NCBI GenBank assembly: GCA_024639145.1
Contig: JAHEIZ010000014.1
Location: forward strand, 4,543 to 68,542
DNA length: 64,000 bases
Reading direction: 5' to 3'
Source of the DNA: Actinomycetes bacterium
Lineage (GTDB): Bacteria; Actinomycetota; Actinomycetes; S36-B12
Shown here: positions 50,869-63,182 of the stretch, in pieces
Layout: each line of letters starts with the position of its first letter
Position numbering within the stretch: position 1 is the first letter of the stretch
Notes under the pieces: generated by a model
What the model was told of the DNA's origin: nothing
Database searches by the model: none
Seen by the model: only the letters and a program-made list of their open reading frames with translations
Program-made: the position numbers and the translations under genes

Positions 50869-50914
50869 AAGCGTAAATTCTAATGGTCACGCTTACATCG
50901 CGAAAATCGGGCGT

Positions 50915-51265
50915 TCAGAGCACATTCCGCATTCGTGGGATAGCTGCCATGAGGGCCTCGAGCGGTGAATCCAGAGTGCGGGTCACGATCGTCGAGTTAA
51001 TCCGAAAATATTCGTGGGCCACGACGTTTCGCATCCCGATCATCGCCTCCCACGGGAGCGACGGCTCGGAGTCCCGAACTCGTGCCGGAAGATTGCGAAT
51101 GATCTCTCCAAGGATCACCAGCACATAGAGGACGGCGTCGAAGGACGTGGCGGCCAGATCGAGGTCACCGTCATTCTCGGCTTGATGCATGAGCCGCTCC
51201 GCCACTCGGATTGCGAGAATCCGAGTCTCGAGATCGTCGAGTAGTTGCTCAGGTGACCGACTCAT
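50915..51265 (-). CDS. hepT: HEPN-domain toxin (HepT/DUF86-like)
   Basis: 116 aa with the Rx4HxY motif (MRNVVAHEY). It overlaps the MNT gene stop by 4 nt. Confidence 0.85.
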   Translation of the reverse strand: MSRSPEQLLDDLETRILAIRVAERLMHQAENDGDLDLAATSFDAVLYVLVILGEIIRNLPARVRDSEPSLPWEAMIGMRNVVAHEYFRINSTIVTRTLDSPLEALMAAIPRMRNVL

Positions 51266-51768
51266 AGGGGTACCGCCTCACGCAATGCGCGCTCCGCGAC
51301 AGCTGGTCGAAGCAGCGCCACAGGAGCAATATCGACCTGGCGGCCGAGTATCTCCTCGACCTCTCGCTTGAGTTCGACGATCGGGAGCAAACCCCCGGCA
51401 AGGTCGAAATCGACCAGGAGATCAATATCGCTATCTGGCGAGTCCTCACCTCGCGCGCTGGAACCGAAGAGTCGGACGTTGGTGGCTCCGGCCACCCGGG
51501 CACGATGAATGATCTCCATCCGATGCGAGCGGACGAGCACAGCATTCGGGGATGACAAATCCGCTACGGGAGCCGATGAGGAATTCAATTCGAGCTTGTG
51601 TCCCATTGCCTGCATGACGCGTTCCAGAGTGGAGACCGCGGGTGAAGAGACACCAGATTCATATCGGGCGATTGCCGCCTGCGAGGTTCCCGCCCTCCGT
51701 GCCAACTCGGCCTGGGTAATGCCGACTTCGACTCGGGTCGCGTGGATGAGATCTGCCGCTGGAGCCAT
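51262..51768 (-). CDS. mntA: XRE-HTH fused to minimal nucleotidyltransferase antitoxin (MntA-like)
   Basis: Has an N-terminal HTH (ITQAELARRAGTSQAAIARYESG) and a C-terminal NTase motif (FGSSARGEDSPDSDIDLLVDF). Confidence 0.85.
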   Translation of the reverse strand: MAPAADLIHATRVEVGITQAELARRAGTSQAAIARYESGVSSPAVSTLERVMQAMGHKLELNSSSAPVADLSSPNAVLVRSHRMEIIHRARVAGATNVRLFGSSARGEDSPDSDIDLLVDFDLAGGLLPIVELKREVEEILGRQVDIAPVALLRPAVAERALREAVPL

Positions 51769-51776
51769 GGAACAAT

Positions 51777-51794
51777 TATACCTGTACAGGTATA
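51777..51794. promoter_or_regulatory. perfect 18-bp palindrome overlapping a TATAAT box, candidate operator/promoter of the MNT-HEPN operon
   Basis: TATACCTGTACAGGTATA. On the minus strand its 3' half runs into TATAAT (51780-51775), which ends 6 nt before the ATG at 51768. This fits a leaderless transcript. Confidence 0.55.
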
Positions 51795-51806
51795 GATGTT
51801 CATGCC

Positions 51807-52403
51807 TTATACGCGACGGCGACCCTCGAAGGCTCGACCCAGGGTGACCTCATCGGCGTATTCGAGGTCACCACCCACCGGCAGGCCGCTGGCCAGGCGT
51901 GAGACCGCCACCTCCAGCGGGCTGATCAGTCGGGCCAGGTAAGTGGCGGTGGCCTCACCTTCGAGATTGGGGTCAGTGGCCAGGATGACCTCGGTAATCG
52001 TGGCATCGGAGAGGCGACTCATGAGCTCGCGAATGCGCAGGTCATCGGGGCCGATGCCCTCGATCGGACTGATCGCCCCACCCAGTACGTGATAGCGGCC
52101 CTTGAACTCGCGCGTCTTTTCAATCGCGACGACATCCTTCGGCTCCTCGACAACGCACAGGATCGTGAGATCACGGCGCGGGTCGCGGCAGATGCGGCAC
52201 TGCTCCTCTTCGGCGACGTTGCCGCAGATCGTGCAGAAGCGCACTTTCTCCTTCACCTCGCGCAGCGCATCAACGAGGCGCTGCACGTCGATCGGATCAG
52301 CAGCGAGAATGTGAAAGGCGATGCGTTGCGCGCTCTTGGGCCCGACACCGGGCAGCCGGCCGAGCTCATCGATCAGGTCTTGGACTACGCCCTCGTACAT
52401 CAT
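51807..52403 (-). CDS. recR: recombination protein RecR
   Basis: Has a C4 zinc finger ([16 protein letters not shown]) and a Toprim domain. Its ATG shares 1 nt with the dnaX stop (TGATG). Confidence 0.95.
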
Positions 52404-54304
52404 CAGTGCTCGATCTCGCCGATCTGCGTGCCGCCGAGTTCGCGCATGATCAGGTCAACACCGGAGGTGTCGTCGAGATCCTCGTCATCAATGCTGGGTG
52501 CATCGGGCTCCACGACGACACTGACGGTCTGGGCCGGTGAGTTGGACGAGTCATCGGAGGGATCAACCGGCGCGGCATTCACCAGGCGCGCGGTCGCATT
52601 CGGCGCAAGCACGATGTCGATACGCACATCGGTACGGAAGACATCGAGAACTGCCTGGCGCAGCCGCTCATCGTGACCGCTGGCCTTGGCGTTCGCCGCC
52701 TTGCTCGCATTCTCGACGCCGACAGCCAGCACGCCGTTCTCGAGCGAGAGCGGTGCAGAATCGCTGAACACCATCCAGGCGACGCGCGAGTATGACTTGG
52801 TCGCATCGAGAATGGCCGGCCACATCGAGACAAGTTGCGCGAGCGAGGCGTTTTGGTTCGTGGGCGCCACGATCGGCTCGGCAGCTGCGGCTTCGACCTC
52901 GACTGCAGCGGCCTTCTCGGCAGGCTTCATCGGCGGGCGCGACGCCGCGGACTCCTTCTTGGTCGACGGCGCGACATCACTGAGCCTTGGCGGGCGTGAC
53001 GGCGCTGCTTCCGCAGGCGCTGCAGCTGCAACCGCTGGTGCGACCGGCGGAACGGGAATCGCAGGTGCTACCGGAGGGGGCATCGCAGCCGCGGGTGCAC
53101 TGATGGGCGCATCGCCGGGATGGGCCGCCTGGTGGAACTCTCCGGAGGAAATGCGACGCTCGAGCTGATCGAGTCGTGCGCGCGTGCCGCGCTCATCGGT
53201 ATCGGTAGCCGGAAGCAGAAGCTTCGCTGCCATGAGCTCAAGGTGCAGCCGCGGCGCAGTGGCACCCTTGAGTCCGCTGAGGCCCTCGCTCACGACATCG
53301 GAGGCACGGGCAAGCTCGGAGGCGCCGAACTGCGCCGACTGCTCGACCTGGCGGGCGATCTCGTCCTCGGGCGCATCGATGAGTCCGAGCTGTGCGGCAC
53401 CGCTGACGTGCTGCAGCACGATCAGGTTGCGCATGCGTTCGAGAAGATCGGTGACGAAGCGACGCGGATCATGGCCGGCATCCATCACCTGGTCGATCAC
53501 GGTGAACAGTGCGGCGCCGTCATGCGCTGCCAATGCGTCAACAGTGGCATCAAGCAGCGTCGAGTCGGTCATGCCGAGCTGCGCCACTGCGGTCGCATAG
53601 GTCACGCCATCGGGGCCGGAGCCGGAGATGACCTGGCTCAGGATCGACAGACTGTCTCGCACGCTCCCTGCACCGGCACGTGCGATAAGCGCGAGGGCAT
53701 TCGCCTCGAAAGGAACGCCCTCGGCTTCGCACACCGTTGCGAGATGCTGCTGCAGGACTCGCGCTGACACGAGTCGGAAAGTGTAATTGTGTGTGCGCGA
53801 GCGAATGGTCGGCAGGACCTTGTCGGCCTCCGTGGTCGCGAAGATGAAGCGCACGTGCTCGGGCGGCTCCTCGACCAGCTTCAACAGGGCGTTGAACCCT
53901 GCCGTGGTGACCATGTGGGCCTCGTCGATGATGTAGATCTTGTATCGAGAGGACGCCGGCGCGAACATCGCGCGTTCGCGAAGATCACGGGTGTCGTCGA
54001 CACCGCCATGGCTTGCGGCATCGAGCTCGATGACATCAATGGAACCCGCACCATTGGCCGCGAGATCAATGCAGCTCTGGCACTCACCGCATGGATCAGG
54101 GGTCGGGCCCTTCTCGCAGTTCAGTGAACGAGCGAGGATTCGAGCGGTCGAGGTCTTGCCACAGCCACGCGGGCCGGAGAATAGATATGCATGCGCGACG
54201 CGATCATTCTCGAGGGCGCGGCGCAGCGGGTTGGTGACGTGATCTTGGCCTACAACATCATCGAGTCGCGCGGGGCGATAGGTGCGATACAGGGCCTTGG
54301 ACAC
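52403..54304 (-). CDS. dnaX: DNA polymerase III subunits gamma/tau
   Basis: Has Walker [10 protein letters not shown], the Zn module CGECQSC, DEAHM, and SRT sensor. The central linker is Pro/Ala-rich. The start is GTG at 54304. Confidence 0.95.
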
Positions 54305-54360
54305 CCCGCAACCCTATGCGTCACGGCGGACATCAGTCACCCGGTCGGCGGGAGCTCCCG

Positions 54361-57300
54361 TCAGGGGACCAGGGACCTCGGAATAGGCAGGGCGCTTGTT
54401 CGAACTTCCACCCGTCGGTCCCCCGCGCTGCCCGAGCCGTTCAATGAACCCGCCCCCCAGTATCTGGTCCACACGCGCACCCCCTGCTCGACCAGGTAGG
54501 TCGCCGCAGCCCGGGCCCGGCGAGTCGAGAGAGTGGCAAGTTCGCTGGCGGGACCGGCTCCCCTGCGGGCGAATCCGGTGACGAAGACGCGCTCATTCGC
54601 CACGCGGGCGACCTGCGCGATTGCCCGCAGGCGGGCCCTGTCACGGGCGTCGAGGACGGCCGAACCGCCATTGAAGTAGATCGGCCTTCCCAGCACGGTT
54701 CCGAACAAAGTGGGCTGTCCCGAGCTCGTCCGCGCCGTGATGGTTGTCGCCCGCACCAGGGGGCTCTGTCGCAGTGCCCCGTCGGATACTCCGACCTCGT
54801 TGACGTTGTAGACGTTGACCAAGTACCCCGACGCGACAAACGGCACGGTGACCGTGGCCTGGCTCTGGCCGGGCTCGAGGGCAATGCTGATGCGCGATAC
54901 GACGGCTCCGCGACTGTCGCGCACGACCACGACCGTGGCGAGCACCTGTGATCCAGCGGCACCTTCAGGTTGCCTGATGCGCACGGTGCTGCGCGATCCA
55001 CCGGGTATCGGAGTGACCTGCACATCGCGAGGGCGAGGCGGAAGGGTGCGGCCGCGGGTCGATGTCGCGGCACCCGGCACCTTCGTCTGGTCAGTCGATT
55101 CCGTCGAACCGTTGCTCACCTCGACACCGGCTGTGGAGGAATTCGGACGCGACGGAATTCCGGTATCACTCGTGCCGCCACTCCCCCCTCCTCCGGTTCC
55201 GCCGTTCACGACAGGGGACGTCACCGTGATCGTGACCGTCGAGGAAGCAGCCATGTAGGCGATATCAGCGGCGATGCCCCCGGTGATCACGCACGTGCCG
55301 TCCGCGACCGCCGTGACTGTCGATCCCACCACCGCGCATACGCCGAGGCCCGTGGTTCGCGTCCAGGTGATCGCACCCGTTCCGCTGGCACCCGTGACGC
55401 TCAAGGAGGTTGAAGCGCCCGGCTGAAGGCTGGTCGAGAGCGCGGTCGCCGTGATCGACTGCGGGGAGAGCGCCACCGTGAAGGTGGCCGCGGTTGATCC
55501 AGCCGAGTATCGAGTGGTCATGACACTGGTAGCCGTGACCTGGCACTGACCGGTCGCGGCATAGGTCAGTGCCCCCGTGCCCGCATTCACGCTGCAGCCG
55601 GCTCCGCTGTCCGAGGTGACCGCATAGGTCATGGAGCCATCCCCGGTCGTCGTTGCGGCAGCAGGCGCCACCGTCGCTGCCGGCATCGCCAGCGCCGTCA
55701 CAGGTGACCAACTCACCGTGGGAATAGCGCGGGAGATGGCAAGCGTGGTCGATGACGTGGCCTGCGCATAGCCCGCTGTCGATGCAGCTGTGGCAGTCAC
55801 CGAGCATGAGCCTGAGGACGCGTACGTAAGCACAGGCCGCGTCGCATCAGCGAATGCGCAACCCGTGCCGCCTGCACTCGTGACTGAGTAGCTGATCGCA
55901 CCATCACCCGACGTGGAAGCCGGCCCCAGATCTACCGAGATGCTCGCGAGACTCAACGTCGACGGCGGTGACCACGTCACGGTCTGCGCGGCCTTGGAGA
56001 TGGCGAAGGTCTTGACCGAGGTGATCACGTTGTAGTCGGTCGTGCCGGCCACGGTTGCCGTGACCTCGCATGACCCGTCTGCCGAGAATGCCAGCGTTCG
56101 GGAGAGCGCGGGCAGGGAGCACCCTGTCGATCCCGCGTTGGTGACTGCGTACGTGATCACACCATCGCTATTCGTCGATGCTGCGGAGAATGTCGTCGAG
56201 CCAGCGGGCACTTCCTGAGAGAGACTCGGATTCCAGGTCAGGGTCGGAGTCGCGCGCGAGATCGTGAAGGTCACGTCAGTGAAGCCGCTGTCGTAGTTCG
56301 TGCTCTGCGCGGCGGTGGCGCGCACGGTGCACGTACCCGAACCCGAGTAGGTCAGCACTCCGGTACTCGAATCCACCGAGCACGAAGTCGTCGTGTTACT
56401 CACCTTCGAGTACGAGATCGAAGCACCGCCGAGGGCACTTGCCGGCGTGGATGGTGTCAGCGGCGATTGCACAGTTGTCACGGCGCCAGTCGGCGACCAC
56501 GTGACCGACTGCGCCACCCTGCTCACCGTGAATGTCACGTCAGTGGTGCCCGCGAGATAGCCAGCAGTCTCAGCTGCGGTCGCACGCACAGTGCATGTGC
56601 CCGCGCCTGAGTAGGTCAGTGCGCCAGTAGAGGAATCCACTGAGCAGGATGTCGTCGTGCTGCTCACCTTCGAGTAGGTGATCGCTCCGTCTCCGTTCGA
56701 CGTAGCAGCCGAGGATGGCGTCAATGGGGAGCCGGAAGTCGTGATCGCGGTCGTTGGTGCCCACGACACTGTTTGGGCGCTCTTTGCCTGACCGATCACC
56801 GTCGCACTGGCGCTGGCATATCCGGTGCGCGAGGCAGTCACCGTCAAGGTCCGTGAGACTCCCGCAGCCAAGCCCGTGATCGTCAAGGGCAACGTGGACC
56901 CAGACGCAACTCCCACGGACACCGTCGCCGAGGAAATCGATGGGGTCCAGGTGTAGGCGGCGTCGTAGTTCGTAACGTTGACCGTGAATCCATCACTCGT
57001 GCGAACGGGGGCGCTGAACGTGGGAGCGAGTCGCCCATCGGACCACACCGCGATGTACTTGGCTGTTACTCCACCAGCCTCCTGGAAGTGTCCGCCGGCC
57101 CAGATCCTGCCCTGGGAGTCCTCGAGCATCTCATAGACGTAGGACGAGACTCCGGTGCCCACCGCAGTCGCGACTCGGGTATTGCCGTTCCATGTCGCGA
57201 TATTTCTCGTGCTGGTTCCGTTGAAGGTGCCCCAAGTTCCACCGACGTACAGGGTCCCCGTTGATGCCGACAGCAGCGAGTAGATGTCGGAGCCACCGTT

Positions 57301-58131
57301 TCCGATTGGCGAGGTGTCCCAGGTCGCGTTCACTGAGTCATATCTCGTGAGAAAGAAGGATGACGTCGTGCCGTCACGACCGCCTGCATAGAGGTATCTG
57401 CCGTCGGAAGCCAGCGCACGCACGTTGTCGCCACCCCCGTTCGCGCTTACCCACGCCGTCCCGGACCATCGCGCCAAGTCGTAAACCCACGTCCCATTGA
57501 AGAATTCGAACGAACCTCCGGCGAAGAGGGACCCGGCGTGAAAGATCAAGCTGTATACCGAGGAAAGGCTGGAGAACTGGCTCCCCATTGCGGACCAGGA
57601 GGAACCATCCCACTTGGCTACGCCTGATGCCGCGACTCCGTCCATCGTCGACATGGAGCCGCCGGCAACATAGAGATTGCCCGACGAATCGAAGACGAGG
57701 GCATTCAGGCCATACGTGGTTCCGACACCTGACCCAACGGGTGCCCACGTGACGCCATCCCACACGGCGATGCTCTTCGCCGCCACCCCACCTGCTTGAG
57801 TGAACGTCCCGACCGCGTAGAGCTTGCCGTTGCGGAATGCCAAGTCATTCACATTGCCATTGACGCCGCTTCCCAGGGTCGACCAGGTGGATCCGTTCCA
57901 CATCGCCACCCGACTCGCACTCAAACCACCGGCAGCCGTGAAAGAGCCTCCGATGTAGATGTTGCCACTCGGGTCCGATGCGAGGGCGTACACGATTCCG
58001 TCAGTTCCTGCACCAACGGCGGACCAGCCTGCGGCAGCACTCGCAGGAGGCGCGACGACTGAAAGCCCGCAGAAGGCTAGAACGACGGTCATGGCGGCGA
58101 CGCACCACGAACTCCACGGGCCTCTTCGCAC
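54361..58131 (-). CDS. large secreted cell-envelope protein: signal peptide, beta-propeller, FN3-like domain, six Cys-pair Ig-like repeats, Gly-rich linker, FN3-like domain, C-terminal OmpA-like peptidoglycan-binding domain
   Basis: I place the start at GTG 58131 (VRRGPWSSWCVAAMTVVLAFCGLSVVAPPASAAA), which gives a signal peptide. The track start at 58374 would overlap the divergent regulator gene. Propeller blades repeat as G.V.AL..D..GN.Y.GG.F..AGG..A..IA.W.G..W. The C-terminus (PIYFNGGSAVLD...TRRARAAATYLVEQGV...DRRVEV) is OmpA_C-like. Confidence 0.8.
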   Translation of the reverse strand: MRRGPWSSWCVAAMTVVLAFCGLSVVAPPASAAAGWSAVGAGTDGIVYALASDPSGNIYIGGSFTAAGGLSASRVAMWNGSTWSTLGSGVNGNVNDLAFRNGKLYAVGTFTQAGGVAAKSIAVWDGVTWAPVGSGVGTTYGLNALVFDSSGNLYVAGGSMSTMDGVAASGVAKWDGSSWSAMGSQFSSLSSVYSLIFHAGSLFAGGSFEFFNGTWVYDLARWSGTAWVSANGGGDNVRALASDGRYLYAGGRDGTTSSFFLTRYDSVNATWDTSPIGNGGSDIYSLLSASTGTLYVGGTWGTFNGTSTRNIATWNGNTRVATAVGTGVSSYVYEMLEDSQGRIWAGGHFQEAGGVTAKYIAVWSDGRLAPTFSAPVRTSDGFTVNVTNYDAAYTWTPSISSATVSVGVASGSTLPLTITGLAAGVSRTLTVTASRTGYASASATVIGQAKSAQTVSWAPTTAITTSGSPLTPSSAATSNGDGAITYSKVSSTTTSCSVDSSTGALTYSGAGTCTVRATAAETAGYLAGTTDVTFTVSRVAQSVTWSPTGAVTTVQSPLTPSTPASALGGASISYSKVSNTTTSCSVDSSTGVLTYSGSGTCTVRATAAQSTNYDSGFTDVTFTISRATPTLTWNPSLSQEVPAGSTTFSAASTNSDGVITYAVTNAGSTGCSLPALSRTLAFSADGSCEVTATVAGTTDYNVITSVKTFAISKAAQTVTWSPPSTLSLASISVDLGPASTSGDGAISYSVTSAGGTGCAFADATRPVLTYASSGSCSVTATAASTAGYAQATSSTTLAISRAIPTVSWSPVTALAMPAATVAPAAATTTGDGSMTYAVTSDSGAGCSVNAGTGALTYAATGQCQVTATSVMTTRYSAGSTAATFTVALSPQSITATALSTSLQPGASTSLSVTGASGTGAITWTRTTGLGVCAVVGSTVTAVADGTCVITGGIAADIAYMAASSTVTITVTSPVVNGGTGGGGSGGTSDTGIPSRPNSSTAGVEVSNGSTESTDQTKVPGAATSTRGRTLPPRPRDVQVTPIPGGSRSTVRIRQPEGAAGSQVLATVVVVRDSRGAVVSRISIALEPGQSQATVTVPFVASGYLVNVYNVNEVGVSDGALRQSPLVRATTITARTSSGQPTLFGTVLGRPIYFNGGSAVLDARDRARLRAIAQVARVANERVFVTGFARRGAGPASELATLSTRRARAAATYLVEQGVRVWTRYWGAGSLNGSGSAGDRRVEVRTSALPIPRSLVP
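55225..56790 (-). repeat. six tandem coding repeats of about 85-88 codons (Ig-like, two conserved Cys each) inside the surface-protein gene
   Basis: The repeat consensus is ..TV(T/S)W.P........GDGAI(T/S)Y.V.......C.V...TG.LTY...G.C.V.AT.A....Y...T....F.I.. Unit borders fall near 56790, 56530, 56270, 56010, 55745, 55485 and 55225. Confidence 0.75.
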
Positions 58132-58255
58132 AAGCCCAGTAGGCGGGAGGTCGGACGGTTCATCAAGCGAACCCACCCGTACATCCACTATTGGGGGTGT
58201 AGGCCCCCATGCAGGCGAGTGTGAAGGACGCCCCGTCGACCACCGATGACATCCC

Positions 58256-58942
58256 GTGCAGAGTGAACTGATGGGATCAGCCGAGGAAGGGGCCAGCGTG
58301 GACTCGAACGGCACATGCGTCCTCGTCGTCGACGACGACGACTTCACTCGCACGCTCGTGACCTCACTCGTCACCTCCCTGGGCTACGAGGTCGCGGCCA
58401 GCGCCGAGGGCGTTCCGCAGGCGATGGCTCTCGCTCATGAGACACACCCGGCACTCGCCTTGCTCGATCTCGACCTCGGCGAGGGGCCCACGGGGATCGA
58501 CCTCGCCTACGGTCTGCGCAGGCTGAACCCGAGCATCGCCATAGTCATGCTCACCTCGTACGGCCACCCCACATGGATGGGACAGCGCCGCGAACCGCCG
58601 GTGGGCACTCGATACGTCGTCAAGGGAAAGCTCACCGACACCACCGTGCTGGCCGATGCACTCGCAGCAGCCCTGGCGCAACCTCTGATGCCTGAGACGT
58701 CCCTCCAGGTCGCTCCACCATTGAGCGATGGCCAGTGGGCGATCCTTCGCCTGGTCGCTGCCGGTTACACGAACGGCGAGATTGCCCGCAGACGATCGCT
58801 TACCGAGGATGCCGTCAACAAGTCCGTGTCGCGACTGGTGCGCCAGCTGGAAATCAACGTTGGCCCTTCCGGAAATGCACGCGTGCTCTTGACTCAGGCA
58901 TTTAACAAACTGACGGGAACAGTGAGTGAACGTCGCCATTAG
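58256..58942 (+). CDS. NarL/LuxR-family response regulator
   Basis: Has a receiver domain (VLVVDDDD...ALLDLDLG...VMLTS) and a LuxR HTH (LSDGQWAILRLVAAGYTNGEIARRRSLTEDAVNKSVSRL). The probable true start is GTG 58298, which has a GAGGAAGGGG RBS. Confidence 0.88.
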   Translation: MQSELMGSAEEGASVDSNGTCVLVVDDDDFTRTLVTSLVTSLGYEVAASAEGVPQAMALAHETHPALALLDLDLGEGPTGIDLAYGLRRLNPSIAIVMLTSYGHPTWMGQRREPPVGTRYVVKGKLTDTTVLADALAAALAQPLMPETSLQVAPPLSDGQWAILRLVAAGYTNGEIARRRSLTEDAVNKSVSRLVRQLEINVGPSGNARVLLTQAFNKLTGTVSERRH

Positions 58943-60620
58943 GCGCGGGGCGACTCAACTGATCGCCTTCGCCGCATTTTCTGCAGCAGTTCTCCTATCG
59001 AATTCCGAGACGATCAATCCGAAGAACGCACGTGCGTGGCTTGTCGCAGCTGCACTCACTGCCCTGGTGCCGGTGCTAGCACTCGATGTGGTGTGGTGGG
59101 TCAATAGACAAGTTCGTCAAGGACGTCGTCTATCCACTCGTGAGTCCATCCTGTTCTCCGTCCTCACGGCTACGGTATTTGCGCTTTCCGAACTGCTCAT
59201 CGCACGCGCCATGGGACTTGAATCCTCAACGCAACCTTTGGTCGGAGTGCTTGTCACCATCCTCGCTGTGTCGATGATCGGAATCGGCCTGATGGTTCTT
59301 ATGCAGGCGCGTCGATTCGAGGATGAGCGGCGCATGGCTCTGCTCGAAGAGGGCATTGCACTCGAACTCGCACGCCAGGAAGTCAGCGAGATCGTTCAGC
59401 GCATGCAGGTCGCGCTGCATACGGACATTGACGCTGCACTCGTGAACGCAAGGGTTGGGCTCGAGGAGCGATTGAAGGACCAGGAGCGAACGCTGGAGCA
59501 AGAGCACTGGCCAGCAATCGCCCAAGAGCTGAGATCTACTGCGGAAGACACGGTTCGGCCGCTGAGCAAATCCCTGTGGTCGCGCACGGTCATGCGGGAG
59601 TCCCGCCTTGGCTTTGTCGGCATTATTCGAAACATCCTGACGCAACAGCCATTTCGTCCGCTGACGGTCGTCGCGATTTACCTCCTCGCCGCAGCTGCCG
59701 AATCGATCACGATCCTTGGCTGGGCCGTGGGCTTGCTCTCGCTAGCCGTCGGGGTCGCCCTGATCGCCGTACTGCTCGCCACGGGCAACGCGGTCATGGC
59801 GCGTCATCCGGTTCATCACGCTTCGATCTTCGTCACGACGGTTGTCCTTGTCGAGATGACGGGGCTGCTCTCATTCCCTGTACGTGCTCGTTGGGGTTCC
59901 AGCGACTACACCTGGGGTGAGTTCATCGCGTCAGTGATCCTGGGCTCAATAGTGATCGTGGCCTCATCGGCTCTCGGATCAATTCGCACGCATCGAGACG
60001 ACATCGCACGAACCTTCCAGGCTGATATCGACCGCGAACTGATCGAGTCTCATGCGTCCAGCCGACAGGTGGCTCAGCTGGCTCGTGAATCCGCTCGCAT
60101 CCTGCACGGATCCGTGCAAACCCGCTTGATCGCCTGCGCGGTGGCTATTGAGCGCGCCACGGAGACAGATGATGTGACGGCTTTTCGCCTCGCCTTGCAA
60201 GAAGCGCACGAGGTGCTCACCACACCCCTCAGTTCGCCCCCGAGTCTTGACGTCGCTCTCCTCGATGAAGTCGAACGCAAAGTGTCGCTGTGGTCGAGTT
60301 TGTGCGCGATTGAGGTTCACCTCGACATGGCGCTCTCCGATGTTCGAGGGCGATTCGCTCGCGAAGTCGGTCGCGTGGTGGAGGAAGGCCTGAGCAACGC
60401 GATCCGCCACGGAGGCTCCTCTTCCATTCGCATCGACATTGCGAACTCTGCCGACAACGTGATCGTCCTCGTGGCGGACAACGGGATCGGGCCGACCGGC
60501 GGCAGACCTGGCCTGGGCTCTGCCGTGCTCGACGGCATCAGCGAGGAATGGTCCCTCACCCGCGAGGGAACAGGTGCAACGCTGAGAGTTCTGCTGCGTG
60601 CCGCTCCATTCGAGGCATAA
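58926..60620 (+). CDS. sensor histidine kinase (HisKA_3/NarX-like core) with two 4-TM blocks
   Basis: Has the H-box ARILHGSVQTRL, the N-box EEGLSNAIRHG and the G-box DNGIGP. About 8 hydrophobic helices are split by a roughly 110-aa charged helical segment. It overlaps the regulator gene by 17 nt. Confidence 0.85.
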   Translation: MNVAIRRGATQLIAFAAFSAAVLLSNSETINPKNARAWLVAAALTALVPVLALDVVWWVNRQVRQGRRLSTRESILFSVLTATVFALSELLIARAMGLESSTQPLVGVLVTILAVSMIGIGLMVLMQARRFEDERRMALLEEGIALELARQEVSEIVQRMQVALHTDIDAALVNARVGLEERLKDQERTLEQEHWPAIAQELRSTAEDTVRPLSKSLWSRTVMRESRLGFVGIIRNILTQQPFRPLTVVAIYLLAAAAESITILGWAVGLLSLAVGVALIAVLLATGNAVMARHPVHHASIFVTTVVLVEMTGLLSFPVRARWGSSDYTWGEFIASVILGSIVIVASSALGSIRTHRDDIARTFQADIDRELIESHASSRQVAQLARESARILHGSVQTRLIACAVAIERATETDDVTAFRLALQEAHEVLTTPLSSPPSLDVALLDEVERKVSLWSSLCAIEVHLDMALSDVRGRFAREVGRVVEEGLSNAIRHGGSSSIRIDIANSADNVIVLVADNGIGPTGGRPGLGSAVLDGISEEWSLTREGTGATLRVLLRAAPFEA

Positions 60621-60714
60621 GGGGACCCCCCGCACACCCATCAGAGCCCGCCTGCCCTTGCTGCCTTCCGGCCCTGGGGGGGTTCAGCGAGATGACGCCG
60701 CACGAGGGGTCGGC
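60621..60714 (-). ncRNA. ffs: signal recognition particle RNA (small, 4.5S-type)
   Basis: The minus strand reads ...GACCCCUCGUGCGGCGUCAUCUCGCUGAACCCCCCCAGGGCCGGAAGGCAGCAAGGGCAGGCGGGCUCUGAUGGGUGUGCGGGGGGUC... This is the conserved domain IV motif (AGGxCCGGAAGGxAGCA with a GGAA tetraloop) inside a long hairpin closed by GACCCC/GGGGUC. The ends are approximate. Confidence 0.78.
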
Positions 60715-60773
60715 ATAAGGGTACGCGGCAGGCGATTGGCTCACCAAGTGCCCCAACTTGTAGCCTCTCCCAC

Positions 60774-60858
60774 GGAGGATTCGCCTAGTGGCCTATGGCG
60801 CTCGCCTGGAACGCGGGTTGGGGGAAACCCCTCAGGGGTTCAAATCCCCTATCCTCCG
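60774..60858 (+). tRNA. tRNA-Ser (anticodon GGA)
   Basis: Reads GGAGGAT...CTCGC-CTGGAAC-GCGGG, followed by a long variable arm (TTGGGGGAAACCCCTCA), then GGGG-TTCAAAT-CCCC-T-ATCCTCC-G. This is a class II tRNA. Confidence 0.9.
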
Positions 60859-60869
60859 CGCTGATACGC

Positions 60870-60902
60870 AAGTGGGACGGACCGATTCGGTCCGTCCCAC
60901 TT
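60870..60902 (+). terminator. hairpin terminator after tRNA-Ser(GGA)
   Basis: AAGTGGGACGGACCG-ATT-CGGTCCGTCCCACTT forms a 15-bp perfect stem. Confidence 0.7.
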
Positions 60903-60923
60903 CGTGCTTGTAGGCTTTTCCGC

Positions 60924-61013
60924 GGTGGCGTGTCCGAGCGGCCAAAGGAGCACGCCTCGAAAGCGTGTGTGGGTGAAAGCTCACCGTGGGTTCAAATCCC
61001 ACCGCCACCGCCA
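60924..61013 (+). tRNA. tRNA-Ser (anticodon CGA)
   Basis: Reads GGTGGCG-TG-TCC-GAGCGGCCAAA-GGA-G-CACGC-CTCGAAA-GCGTG, followed by a long variable arm, then GTGGG-TTCAAAT-CCCAC-CGCCACC-G-CCA. Confidence 0.9.
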
Positions 61014-61052
61014 TGAGAACTGGGCATCCCGTATGGGGTGCCCAGTTCTCAT
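61014..61052 (+). terminator. hairpin terminator after tRNA-Ser(CGA)
   Basis: (A)TGAGAACTGGGCA...TGCCCAGTTCTCAT forms a 14-bp stem followed by TTCG. Confidence 0.7.
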
Positions 61053-61198
61053 TTCGATAGCGCGCGGGATTTGGGAGGAGCTCACGCAATGGGCGACGGT
61101 TGCGAAAACGTGCCCTGGCGCTGAATTCGTGTTCGACGTTCGCATCGAGGGAAATGCACTCCTGTAGCCTCACGGCAATGATGCGCGGAACGCAGGTG

Positions 61199-63079
61199 AT
61201 GGGTAACACCGACGCGTCTCGACGGTGGGTATTGCGCGTCTCCGCGCTCGCCATGGTGCTCACCACCGTGGCGGCATGCACGAATTCCCCGATTTCCTCG
61301 GCTCCTTCGGCCGACTCGATTGGGATGATCCGCGAGACCGACCAGGGCACCGCGCTCACGATTCCGGCTATGTGGGCTGCCAAGCAGAGCGACGGCTCGA
61401 TTGTCGGGGGCATCGAGCCTGCCGAGGTTCTCGTCGCGGTCAAGGGGGATGGTCAGTTCACTGTCGATCTCTCGACAATCGAGTCACGGGGAGCCGGCCC
61501 TCAATGGGAGGCGGCGACCGCTCAGGCAGCAGCAGTAGGAACCCTGCTCAGTGCATCGGATCCGTCGAAGATCGATCTCGGCTTCACGATCACCGGCCCC
61601 ATTGACGGGCCGTCGGCCGGCGGCCTCCTGACAGTCGGGGTGCTGGCGGCGATCAATCGCGATCCCCTACTTCCACACGTCACCATGACGGGCACCATCT
61701 CGCCGGACGGATCCATCGGTGCAGTCGGCTACGTGCCCACCAAGGTCGCCGCGGCTGCACAGGCGGGATACACGACGATCGTCGTGCCTTCGGGGCCGAT
61801 TCAGGTCACGAACGCTGATGGCTCAACGCAGCCGCTCGCCGAGTACGCGGCCACACTCGGCGTGAGAATCATCCCGGTGCGTACCGTGAACGAGGCGTAC
61901 AAGGAACTGACCGGCAGTGCCTACGTGCCCATCCCCGCGGTTCCCGTGGTGGCCTCGCCGCAGTCCGGCGCCGCCATCACCGCAACGACACGCACGATGC
62001 TCGCGCGACTCACCGCCGCAATCACGACGGCTCCGACCGGCACTGACGAGCAGGCCATTGCCCGGGCTCGGTCGGCGATTCCCCGGATGAAGGCGGCAAT
62101 GGCGAAGGGCGAGTGGGATCGCGCGTACGGTCTCGGTGCTTTCTCGTACCTGCGTCTGGCGCGCGAATCGGGCGCCGCACGCGTGGAATCAACGCTGTCG
62201 ACCTCGGGAATCGTGAAGGCGGAGATCGAACTTCGAGCGGCAACCACGGCTGCGCTGCAGGATGCGATCGAAGCCCGCGACTCCGCGATTGATTCCACGC
62301 CCCTGCTGCTCGAGAAGGCACTCGACCTACCGGGTGCGCTCGGTTGGGCGACGTACGCGATCGCCTCGTATCGGGGCATCCTGCTCGAACTTGATCAGCC
62401 GAATGACAAGGCCGCGTTGATCGCTGCAGGTCGCGTCCTCGCGGAAGAGTCCGCAGGAGTCAAGGACATGCTTCCCGACGCCTTGCAGGTGCTCAACGCC
62501 ATGCCCTCCCGCACATCGATCACCGCTGAGGAGCTTCGCTCCTTCCTCGCGGGCTATTCAGTTCTTCTGCGCAGTGCGGGCCAGGCGAACACCGATTATC
62601 TCGCGGCACTCATCGCACGATCGTGGGTCGCCGACGGCACGGTCAGCGATGACGGACTCATCGGCGCGAACCAGGTGCTGCAGTCGTCCGCCAGCAACGT
62701 GACGCCGGGTAGTGCAACAGAGGCCCTCGCGCAGTGCGCCGACGCTCTCACGTTCTATGTCGTCTCCAATGGACTTGTCTCCGGGCACCAGGCCTATGCG
62801 ATCACGGGCACCTCGAGCAGCCACTGGACCAGCCCGGTTCCCCTGGCGATCGACTCCGCTGTCGACACGGGTGCGGCAACCATCGAGGCCTACGGGGCCA
62901 TCCTTCGGGCGCGTGGGCTCACGGTCGGCTATCCGCTCTGGTCGTCCAGGTGGGGCAGGGCCGCCGCACTCGAGTACCGCGGACGCGCGGAGGCCACGGA
63001 TTCAGGCTGGCTCGCCCTGAACGAGACGTGGTACGACGCGGTGAGCATGTTCATGGTCAATGCCAAGACCCAGAGCTGA
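61199..63079 (+). CDS. secreted lipoprotein with Lon-type (S16) Ser-Lys peptidase domain and a long helical C-terminal domain of unknown function
   Basis: Has a signal/lipobox (RRWVLRVSALAMVLTTVAAC), the S16 catalytic Ser motif (ITGPIDGPSAGG), and the catalytic Lys context (IGAVGYVPTKVAAAAQAGYTTIVVP). The last roughly 390 aa have no motif I recognise. The start could also be ATG 61178/61181. Confidence 0.75.
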   Translation: MGNTDASRRWVLRVSALAMVLTTVAACTNSPISSAPSADSIGMIRETDQGTALTIPAMWAAKQSDGSIVGGIEPAEVLVAVKGDGQFTVDLSTIESRGAGPQWEAATAQAAAVGTLLSASDPSKIDLGFTITGPIDGPSAGGLLTVGVLAAINRDPLLPHVTMTGTISPDGSIGAVGYVPTKVAAAAQAGYTTIVVPSGPIQVTNADGSTQPLAEYAATLGVRIIPVRTVNEAYKELTGSAYVPIPAVPVVASPQSGAAITATTRTMLARLTAAITTAPTGTDEQAIARARSAIPRMKAAMAKGEWDRAYGLGAFSYLRLARESGAARVESTLSTSGIVKAEIELRAATTAALQDAIEARDSAIDSTPLLLEKALDLPGALGWATYAIASYRGILLELDQPNDKAALIAAGRVLAEESAGVKDMLPDALQVLNAMPSRTSITAEELRSFLAGYSVLLRSAGQANTDYLAALIARSWVADGTVSDDGLIGANQVLQSSASNVTPGSATEALAQCADALTFYVVSNGLVSGHQAYAITGTSSSHWTSPVPLAIDSAVDTGAATIEAYGAILRARGLTVGYPLWSSRWGRAAALEYRGRAEATDSGWLALNETWYDAVSMFMVNAKTQS

Positions 63080-63182
63080 GGAGCCGCACGCCGGTGAGTA
63101 ATCCGGGATGAAACCCCGTCCAAGGGTCGCCTACGATGAGAGCAGGCGCATCAACGACGACGCGCATCTTCGAAAGGCAGTG

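Follow-up and report, generated by a model that had tools for sequence, protein, structure and literature searches.

The window analysed here is a stretch of 64,000 nucleotides (nt; 64 kb) from contig JAHEIZ010000014.1 of an Actinomycetes bacterium, and the element in question is a segment of three genes lying between the signal recognition particle (SRP) RNA gene ffs and dnaX. The ffs gene, of the small bacterial type, occupies 60618-60714 on the minus strand (Rfam RF00169, 63 bits; gathering score 40), and beyond it are tRNA-Ser(gga) at 60774-60859 and tRNA-Ser(cga) at 60924-61013, both on the plus strand (ARAGORN). The dnaX gene (52403-54304, minus strand, GTG start at 54304; NCBIfam NF005846, 731 bits) has the same orientation as ffs, and its stop is overlapped by recR (51807-52403, minus strand; TIGR00615, 281 bits). 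Three genes separate ffs from dnaX: a histidine kinase of 564 amino acids (aa) at 58926-60620 and a NarL/LuxR-type response regulator at 58298-58942, both on the plus strand, and a secreted surface protein at 54361-58131 on the minus strand. The kinase stop codon (60618-60620) touches the final bases of the ffs 3' end, and a 56-nt spacer (54305-54360) lies between the surface-protein stop codon (54361-54363) and the dnaX start. The divergent control region between the surface-protein and regulator genes (58132-58297) is 124-166 nt long (58132-58255/58297), depending on which regulator start is used. An initial annotation of the window had placed three genes between co-oriented ffs and dnaX, and its coordinates were borne out to a few bases.

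The arrangement in related bacteria was surveyed by a dnaX protein scan with one genome per species, which gave 80 actinobacterial loci (L001-L080), 79 of which include the dnaX start. Of these 79, 73 have a co-oriented ffs upstream of dnaX; the gap between the two genes has a median of 79 nt and does not exceed 300 nt in 61 loci. The four closest relatives, with dnaX amino acid identities to the window of 95% (L001), 89% (L002), 69% (L003), and 61% (L004), lack any relative of the three genes, and no kinase or surface-protein relatives were found in the 80 dnaX loci. In blastn alignments, the window blocks 51811-54320 and 60622-61013 are contiguous in L001 and L002, which have 105 nt in place of 54321-60621 and 12 nt in place of 54324-60621, respectively. 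Homology to the relatives stops at 60622, within 1-2 nt of the ffs 3' end, which forms the left junction of the segment (54321-60621); at the other end, the final 16-19 nt of the 56-nt spacer are homologous to the dnaX leader of the relatives. No remnant of the segment is kept in L001 or L002. The ffs gene of the window is 100% identical to those of L001, L002, and L081 (a sister species described below), and the flanks are 84-100% identical among the compared relatives, of which the window, L081, and a lake population designated X8 carry the segment and L001-L004 do not. Because ffs-dnaX adjacency is common and L001 and L002 align contiguously across the slot, we read the tight ffs-dnaX state as ancestral and the 6.3 kb as accessory. 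The same order and orientation of ffs, dnaX, and recR is found in most Actinobacteria and in Bacillus subtilis (scr(ffs)-dnaX-yaaK-recR), from which the window differs by the 6.3 kb between ffs and dnaX, with two genes on the opposite strand, and by the lack of ybaB/yaaK. In the window, no ybaB/yaaK (EbfC) gene separates dnaX from recR, which overlap by one base instead; in several other actinobacterial loci, a gap of several hundred bases separates the two genes.

The surface protein appears to be a large modular display protein. Its open reading frame extends over 54361-58374 on the minus strand, and the GTG at 58131, which is kept in L081, opens a sequence with an RR n-region, a hydrophobic core, and an ASA/A cleavage site, giving a protein of 1256 aa. 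The start chosen by the gene callers is ATG 58092 (1243 aa, P0001); judging from these signal-peptide features, GTG 58131 is the likely start. The predicted Sec-type signal peptide (aa 1-32, MRRGPW...APPASA/AAGW; 58036-58131, minus strand) was read from the sequence and is kept in L081, and homologues of the protein are P0002-P0013. Pfam matches to the Rax2 propeller (4e-10), Reg_prop (3e-7), and OmpA (2.5e-9) were all above the cut-offs. A sequence search of PDB gave no matches for the surface protein, after which its folds were assigned by structure prediction (AlphaFold) and structural matches were sought with Foldseek. The N-terminal model (pLDDT 78, with the propeller at ~90) shows a seven-bladed beta-propeller followed by immunoglobulin (Ig)-like domains. 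The propeller head (aa 35-365; 57037-58029, minus strand), which also has a DUF5122 match, is structurally closest to the Reg_prop sensor propeller of BT4663 (4a2l, E 5e-10), followed by CylK, Kelch, and galactose oxidase. The BT4663 fold, found on the periplasmic side of Bacteroides hybrid two-component systems, binds glycan; however, it is fused to a kinase, whereas the propeller described here is on a separate secreted protein, and the two share 11% identity with a modest TM-score of 0.44.

The head is followed by a stalk (aa 366-972; 55216-57036, minus strand) composed of one Fn3/Ig-like domain, five two-cysteine Ig-like repeats of ~88 aa, and one Big_2-like domain, the last of which matches 7quz and 7r3t. 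The five repeats lie between the two modelled parts of the protein and are visible in the DNA as a 264-nt periodicity; the L081 protein has one repeat fewer. The C-terminal model comprises the Big_2-like domain, a disordered linker rich in Gly, Ser, Thr, and Pro (aa 973-1035; 55027-55215, minus strand; pLDDT <40), a beta-sandwich (aa 1036-1135; 54727-55026, minus strand; model strands 157-231, pLDDT ~75) with Fn3/Ig-type matches, and an OmpA_C-like domain (aa 1140-1256; 54364-54714, minus strand), a putative peptidoglycan-binding anchor. This last domain scores 37.8 bits against PF00691 (cut-off 27.2), contains the Arg-rich LSTRRARAA helix, and matches 9uu2 (TM-score 0.77), the C domain of Mycobacterium tuberculosis Rv0899 (2lbt/2kgw), Pal, and 4g4w in Foldseek. 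The likeness to ArfA/Rv0899 is structural, with 27-28% identity, and Rv0899 is a small membrane-anchored protein, whereas the domain here would anchor a 1256-aa multidomain display protein. The protein ends in PIPRSLVP, a tail found throughout its family. Taken together, the surface protein would be exported by Sec and held at the cell wall by its C-terminal OmpA-like domain, displaying the propeller on a ~600-aa stalk of seven Ig-like domains that is joined to the anchor by the flexible linker and the beta-sandwich. It may act as an adhesin or receptor, as the initial annotation proposed.

The two genes on the opposite strand encode a two-component system. The best start of the regulator is GTG 58298, which is preceded by GAGGAAGG; alternative starts are at 58256 and 58271. 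The regulator matches Response_reg (1e-12, 48.7 bits) and the GerE helix-turn-helix domain (1.7e-6, 28.0 bits), both above Pfam cut-offs, and the receiver-domain features (acidic pocket, phospho-acceptor Asp, Thr, and Lys) are present, with the motifs VVDDDD, LLDLDL, MLTS, and VVKGK readable. Its PDB matches are VraR (best), DevR/DosR, NarL, and DesR, with full-length alignment to VraR, DevR, and NarL. The kinase scores 24.4 bits against HATPase_c, just below the Pfam cut-off of 26.4. Its H-, N-, and G-boxes were recognized: H394 is within ARILHGSVQTRL, an H-box of the HisKA_3 type, and N491, D518, G520, G522, and G529-G531 are invariant in five homologues of 44-76% identity. The only PDB sequence matches of the kinase are the ATP-binding domains of DosT and DevS. 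By these sequence features, the pair can be assigned to the HisKA_3 kinase/NarL-FixJ regulator class, and the intact catalytic motifs suggest that the kinase phosphorylates the NarL/DosR-like regulator. The two genes overlap by 17 nt, as expected if they form a translationally coupled operon transcribed divergently from the secreted-protein gene.

The input part of the kinase is unusual. Hydropathy analysis showed seven clear hydrophobic segments and one weaker segment, and the positive-inside pattern fits eight transmembrane (TM) helices with outer loops of 14 aa or less and a charged cytoplasmic loop of 115 aa between TM4 and TM5. No Pfam domain was found in the N-terminal 360 aa that contain the membrane helices. 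Because about eight membrane helices are joined by only short outer loops, the signal that the kinase detects probably lies in or at the membrane or the envelope and is not a soluble ligand. LiaFSR and VraTSR, envelope-stress systems of Firmicutes with intramembrane sensing, likewise combine a NarL-type regulator, short extracytoplasmic kinase loops, and envelope-related output; however, their kinases have two TM helices and depend on LiaF or VraT as an accessory membrane protein, whereas the system described here has ~8 TM helices and the 115-aa cytoplasmic loop and lacks a third regulatory gene. The kinase belongs to a family of 169 clusters of 540-590 aa, all from metagenomes or metagenome-assembled genomes (MAGs) and none specifically named, and its input domain, without a Pfam family or a named member, represents an uncharacterised type of sensor.

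Homologues of the surface protein and the kinase, both close and distant, were followed to the contigs that carry them. This revealed 12 distinct instances of the three-gene cassette with DNA and one without DNA, in at least 12 distinct genomic contexts. The gene order is regulator then kinase in all instances, with the 17-nt overlap wherever it was checked, and the divergent neighbour always encodes a protein with an N-terminal signal peptide. A third sister species, represented by two ENA assemblies (L081/L082), has the same three genes with identical junctions. The contexts of L083, L084, L085, L087, L090, L091, L092, L094, L096, and L098 are unrelated to that of the window; the cassettes of L083, L084, L091, and L094 adjoin PIN/MazE/Phd/HepT toxin-antitoxin pairs, and those of L085 and L087 are near asd/ask and a sulfotransferase gene. 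The divergently encoded cargo falls into several types: a propeller with Ig stalk and OmpA domain (window, L081, L083, L084), a Gly_rich_2 head on the same stalk and OmpA domain (L085, L087, L090, L098), FG-GAP with OmpA (L094), Glug-type (L092, L096), and a 151-aa protein (L091). Between head types, the stalk and anchor together share 57-69% identity and have the PIPRSLVP tail in common. A metagenome scan with the kinase alignment gave at least three loci. All cassette loci have G+C contents of 61-68%, and the nearest named relatives of the window are 'Ca. Nanopelagicales' MAGs; as far as sampled, the cassette family is confined to high-GC (61-68%) planktonic freshwater Actinobacteria.

When the spacers between regulator and cargo genes were aligned, the otherwise unrelated sequences had one 16-bp palindrome in common, which is present in this spacer in 12 of the 12 cassette instances with DNA. 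In the window, the imperfect palindrome GGGGGTGTAGGCCCCC is located at 58193-58208, its distances to the starts of the surface-protein and regulator genes being 62 and 90 nt, respectively, and the pattern GGGGNNNTANNNCCCC matches once in the 64 kb (0.03 expected); relaxed searches of the window for operators gave chance-level matches only and no further site. Across 87 loci (~1.5 Mb), the strict pattern matches in cassette loci only, and every match is in the spacer except for a second site in L084. The form GGGGACCTAGGTCCCC is found in L084, L085, L087, and L090, and the variants GGGG(G)(C/T)CTA(G/C)ACCCCC are found in the window, L081, L083, L091, L092, L094, and L098. The consensus DosR box is TTSGGGACTWWAGTCCCSAA (PMC2275270), and the half-sites of the palindrome with their 4-nt spacing (GGGAC-N4-GTCCC) equal those of this box (PMC2275270). 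The distances from palindrome to start codon are ~60-90 nt on both sides, so the palindrome is placed to act on both divergent promoters. Strong comparative evidence indicates that the regulator acts at the palindrome, and by conservation and analogy with the DosR box, a regulator dimer would bind 58193-58208, midway between the divergent genes, and control the surface-protein promoter and probably its own. The proposal of the initial annotation that the two-component system controls the surface protein is supported indirectly by the invariant divergent pairing and the spacer-specific palindrome.

Two other aspects of the control region were considered. An RNA hairpin is an unlikely explanation of the palindrome given its match to the DosR box and its position between divergent genes; covariation cannot separate a hairpin from a protein-binding palindrome, since symmetric changes are expected in both. 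A consensus sigma-70 scan returned nothing useful in this high-GC DNA, and the -35/-10-like elements TTGCCC ... TAATGA/TACTGG downstream of the palindrome, although possible, are not relied on here.

The alternative that the three genes are simply co-transferred neighbours, with a regulator that controls itself or distant genes and a surface-protein promoter that is independent and constitutive, was also weighed. Autoregulation is common in NarL-family systems, and the distance from the palindrome to the regulator start (~60-90 nt) is as constant as that to the cargo start. In addition, the divergent partner in L091 is merely a protein of 151 aa. However, a signal-peptide protein is the divergent partner in every context (12 with DNA and one without) despite the changing cargo, and no other site occurs in the 64-kb window. 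Furthermore, the sole extra palindrome, a second perfect GGGGACCTAGGTCCCC at 6877-6892 of L084, is 112 nt upstream of another secreted beta-propeller gene, with YVTN repeats. Co-transfer without control of the surface-protein gene is therefore unlikely in our judgement; the second L084 site hints that a regulator of this family may act on further targets.

The resemblance to the DosS/DosT-DosR (DevS-DevR) system of M. tuberculosis extends to the protein classes, since that system also pairs a HisKA_3-type kinase with a NarL-family regulator, and the predicted operator of the cassette family, GGGG(A/G)C-CTAG-G(T/C)CCCC, shares its half-sites and 4-nt spacing with the DosR box TTSGGGACTWWAGTCCCSAA (PMC2275270). 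However, GAF and haem sensor domains are absent from the kinase of the window, which carries in their place an eight-TM input domain with no Pfam match. The predicted target is a single adjacent surface-protein gene rather than a dormancy regulon; neither a hypoxia regulon nor GAF-haem domains were found, and there is one predicted operator in the 64 kb. Identity of the regulator to DevR is low (E 1e-8), and the aligned base-contacting residues are EDAVNKS, compared with EKTVKNY in DosR.

The position of the segment may affect the transcription of dnaX. Neither a terminator nor a significant RNA fold was predicted in the 56-nt spacer at 54305-54360 (fold z +0.7) or after ffs in the window. Among the relatives with an empty slot, L001 has a strong hairpin after ffs (z -4.0), and in L002 ffs and dnaX are separated by just 31 nt, so that its dnaX has to rely on transcription that runs through ffs or comes from it. 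Two runs of riverine metatranscriptome data gave contigs (54271-54427 and 54244-54437) that cross the junction, reaching from the final 25 codons of the surface-protein gene over the spacer into the start of dnaX; further RNA contigs fall in the surface-protein, kinase, and dnaX genes. These data fit read-through, but a promoter within the 3' end of the surface-protein gene would fit them equally well. Co-transcription of dnaX with the surface-protein gene, as the initial annotation proposed, is thus in keeping with the junction-spanning contigs from two runs and the lack of a terminator, but an internal promoter accounts for them just as well. In either case, dnaX-recR now follow the surface-protein gene instead of ffs, and at least part of their transcription would come from read-through or from a promoter within the 3' end of that gene. 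Insertion of a cassette can re-wire the transcription of an essential replication gene. The dnaX start itself (54296-54304) also differs: the relatives have GTGTCCATGG, in which GTG or ATG is usable, and the window has GTGTCCAAGG, in which GTG 54304 alone is usable.

Our interpretation, which we hold to be probable, is that window positions 54321-60621 form a self-contained three-gene cassette at the ffs 3' end, which splits the ancestral ffs-dnaX-recR order and consists of a regulator-kinase operon and a divergent surface-protein gene as one unit. The suggestion in the initial annotation of an accessory unit in a conserved slot agrees with this, since the adjacency is ancestral, the closest relatives are empty, and the three genes move jointly. 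The cassette combines two known kinds of arrangement, a two-component system beside its target and a flexible island beside stable RNA genes, in a unit with a single sensor, a single regulator, a single predicted operator of 16 bp, and a single surface protein. The family is recurrent but undescribed, with exchangeable heads and a DosR-box-like operator of its own. Across it, the regulator, operator, stalk, and anchor are kept while the head is exchanged between propeller, Gly_rich_2, FG-GAP, and Glug types. This exchange suggests that the protein serves in binding or recognition and is subject to diversifying pressure; it may be an adhesin, a protein that captures polymers, or a phage decoy or target. 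Swapped heads are typical of molecules that face phages, particles, or polymers. The hosts are abundant, hard-to-culture freshwater bacteria, and because their genomes are small, each regulatory system that is retained is likely to matter.

A more far-reaching proposal, which we regard as doubtful, is that the cassette is a portable regulated surface-display system of streamlined freshwater Actinobacteria. In such a system, a private kinase, regulator, and operator would serve a common scaffold whose heads are swapped by recombination, the kinase would monitor the cargo or the envelope, and the transcription of dnaX-recR would be captured. If so, the eight-TM kinase would sense its own cargo or the state of the envelope, for example phage attack or contact with substrate, and the cell could turn a surface structure that is costly or carries risk on or off in response.

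Several points weigh against the interpretation of the segment as an inserted, regulated unit. The C-terminal model of the surface protein is of modest confidence (pLDDT 63), and of the conserved Asp/Arg pair with which OmpA domains contact the peptide stem of peptidoglycan, the Asp is not evident, the usual G-x-T-D reading TGFARRG, so that wall binding is suggested by the fold only. The palindrome could serve autoregulation alone, and the RNA contigs are unstranded, short, and shallow, with DNA carry-over possible. The surface-protein and regulator genes have core-like codon usage and G+C contents at third codon positions (GC3) of 0.74 and 0.75, respectively (core 0.77 ± 0.04), and the cassettes of the window and L081 are 82% identical in nucleotides, near the 85% of the core. 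The kinase gene has a GC3 of 0.67 (z -2.5) and a codon-usage z of 3.5, but the core gene set was pre-filtered at GC3 ≥0.70, which inflates its deviation. Because composition and divergence are core-like, insertion in the window lineage looks no different from a more ancient gain that was later lost in L001 and L002.

Composition was accordingly set aside as a sign of foreign origin, being uninformative, with the kinase alone deviating and only mildly. Where the initial annotation had looked to GC3 and codon usage to mark out an accessory segment, the patchy unit was found but the foreign composition was not. It had also reckoned the same genes throughout the family with core-like composition as evidence to the contrary; L001 and L002 are empty, but the composition is nearly core-like. 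On these sequence comparisons, the cassette is best regarded not as a fresh foreign import but as an old gain in part of the genus, or an older gain with losses.

The latter possibility can be put more strongly, as retention of a cassette that stood in the slot of a genus-level, perhaps wider, common ancestor and was cleanly deleted in L001, L002, and others. The window, L001, L002, and L081 are roughly equidistant (82-85% nucleotide identity over dnaX and recR), and the core-like composition, the 82% identity of the two cassettes, and their identical junctions fit such an age. The distant L086 (dnaX 60% aa identity) also has a cassette-type surface-protein gene, with a different head type, directly upstream of dnaX. 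However, the outgroups L003 and L004 are empty and 61 of the 79 loci are tight, which places a gain somewhere in the lineage regardless. No cassette remnant is left in L001 or L002, and L001 has its own strong hairpin after ffs. The L086 cargo has the Gly_rich_2 head seen in cassettes at other sites, which fits independent arrival and suggests repeated use of the site. We regard retention from such an ancestor as somewhat improbable.

In the source metagenomes (X4-X6), the region assembles contiguously, the segment and its flanks are at equal depth in the Logan contigs, and no empty-site joint was found in four metagenomes, although contigs cannot reveal rare variants. The cassette is also present with the same junctions in the X8 population, from another lake data set (92-99% similar). 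The X8 contigs are a mosaic over window positions 54433-60671, some cassette pieces having 1-3 differences in ~650 bases and others 6-9%, which suggests recombination inside the cassette or a mixture of strains.

None of the three genes of the segment encodes a recombinase or integrase, a transposase, or a phage protein, no convincing terminal direct or inverted repeats flank it, and no second copy of the 18-nt ffs 3' end was found in the window at up to three mismatches. An 8-mer, GGTCCCCT, is present at both junctions (60614-60621 and 54359-54366). It was set aside as an att repeat; because the right-hand copy encodes the family-wide C-terminus of the cargo, SLVP*, the match is probably chance or microhomology. 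Integrase-type elements target tRNA and tmRNA genes, and a decayed integrase-mediated island, prophage, or integrative and conjugative element that targeted the ffs 3' end might be imagined. The insertion starts 1-2 nt from the ffs 3' end, a second islet starts exactly at the tRNA-Ser(cga) 3' end, and the 8-nt match stands at both junctions. However, the segment has none of the genes or repeats of such an element and the window no further ffs 3'-end copy, the right-hand 8-mer encodes the SLVP* terminus in all contexts, and the same cassette elsewhere does not adjoin RNA genes. We consider an origin of this kind highly unlikely.

Since there is no integrase, transposase, or att repeat, homologous recombination is the most likely route, and the cassette may spread and be lost through exchange between the highly conserved flanks, like a flexible genomic island. 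The flexible islands of streamlined aquatic bacteria, both replacement and additive, likewise show presence or absence at a fixed site by stable RNA genes, surface cargo, and nearby toxin-antitoxin genes, and need no mobility gene under homologous recombination (PMC10872708, PMC12817590). In contrast to these, the cassette is a single small regulated unit rather than a large glycosylation island. It also differs from additive islands in having no repeats of the RNA gene 3' end. Moreover, in the Logan contigs it is fixed in the sampled populations of the window species, without the variation within populations that such islands show.

Other genes have entered the same slot. Unrelated genes of 1-8 kb lie between ffs and dnaX in L007 (823-4373), L076 (2202-9992), L008, L010, L028, L054, L067, L068, and L074. 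The occupants, found in Marmoricola, Kribbella, and some Streptomyces, include a Na/H exchanger, a binding protein, a hydrolase, an AMP-binding enzyme, PepSY_TM, and an adenylyltransferase, and those of Marmoricola and Kribbella are unrelated to the cassette. The highly conserved ffs-dnaX junction is thus a recurrent landing site for accessory genes. In L004 (9878-9968) and L018 (7798-7890), ffs is directly upstream of dnaX but in the opposite orientation.

The surroundings of the cassette are variable as well. A toxin-antitoxin pair is located between recR and the aspartokinase gene (50912-51810), comprising a gene with helix-turn-helix and nucleotidyltransferase domains (MNT-like, 51262-51768) and a HepT ribonuclease gene (50915-51265). 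L081 has the pair, whereas L001-L004 and the X8 population (where the joint is 50913->51811) lack it. In composition the two genes are clearly atypical, with GC3 values of 0.63 and 0.68 and a codon-usage z >6. On the other side, an islet at 61014-63142 encodes a protein of 659 aa that has a Lon_C (S16 protease) domain and a lipoprotein-like signal. The islet starts exactly at the tRNA-Ser(cga) 3' end and is missing in L001, L002, and the X8 population, where the joint is 61038->63125. In the same metagenome, the sequence past 61014-61020 continues in several alternative ways. Three separate variable islets are found within 12 kb (50900-63150), each extending from the 3' end of a conserved gene (recR, ffs, and tRNA-Ser), and the region looks like a local hot spot of recombination-driven gene turnover.

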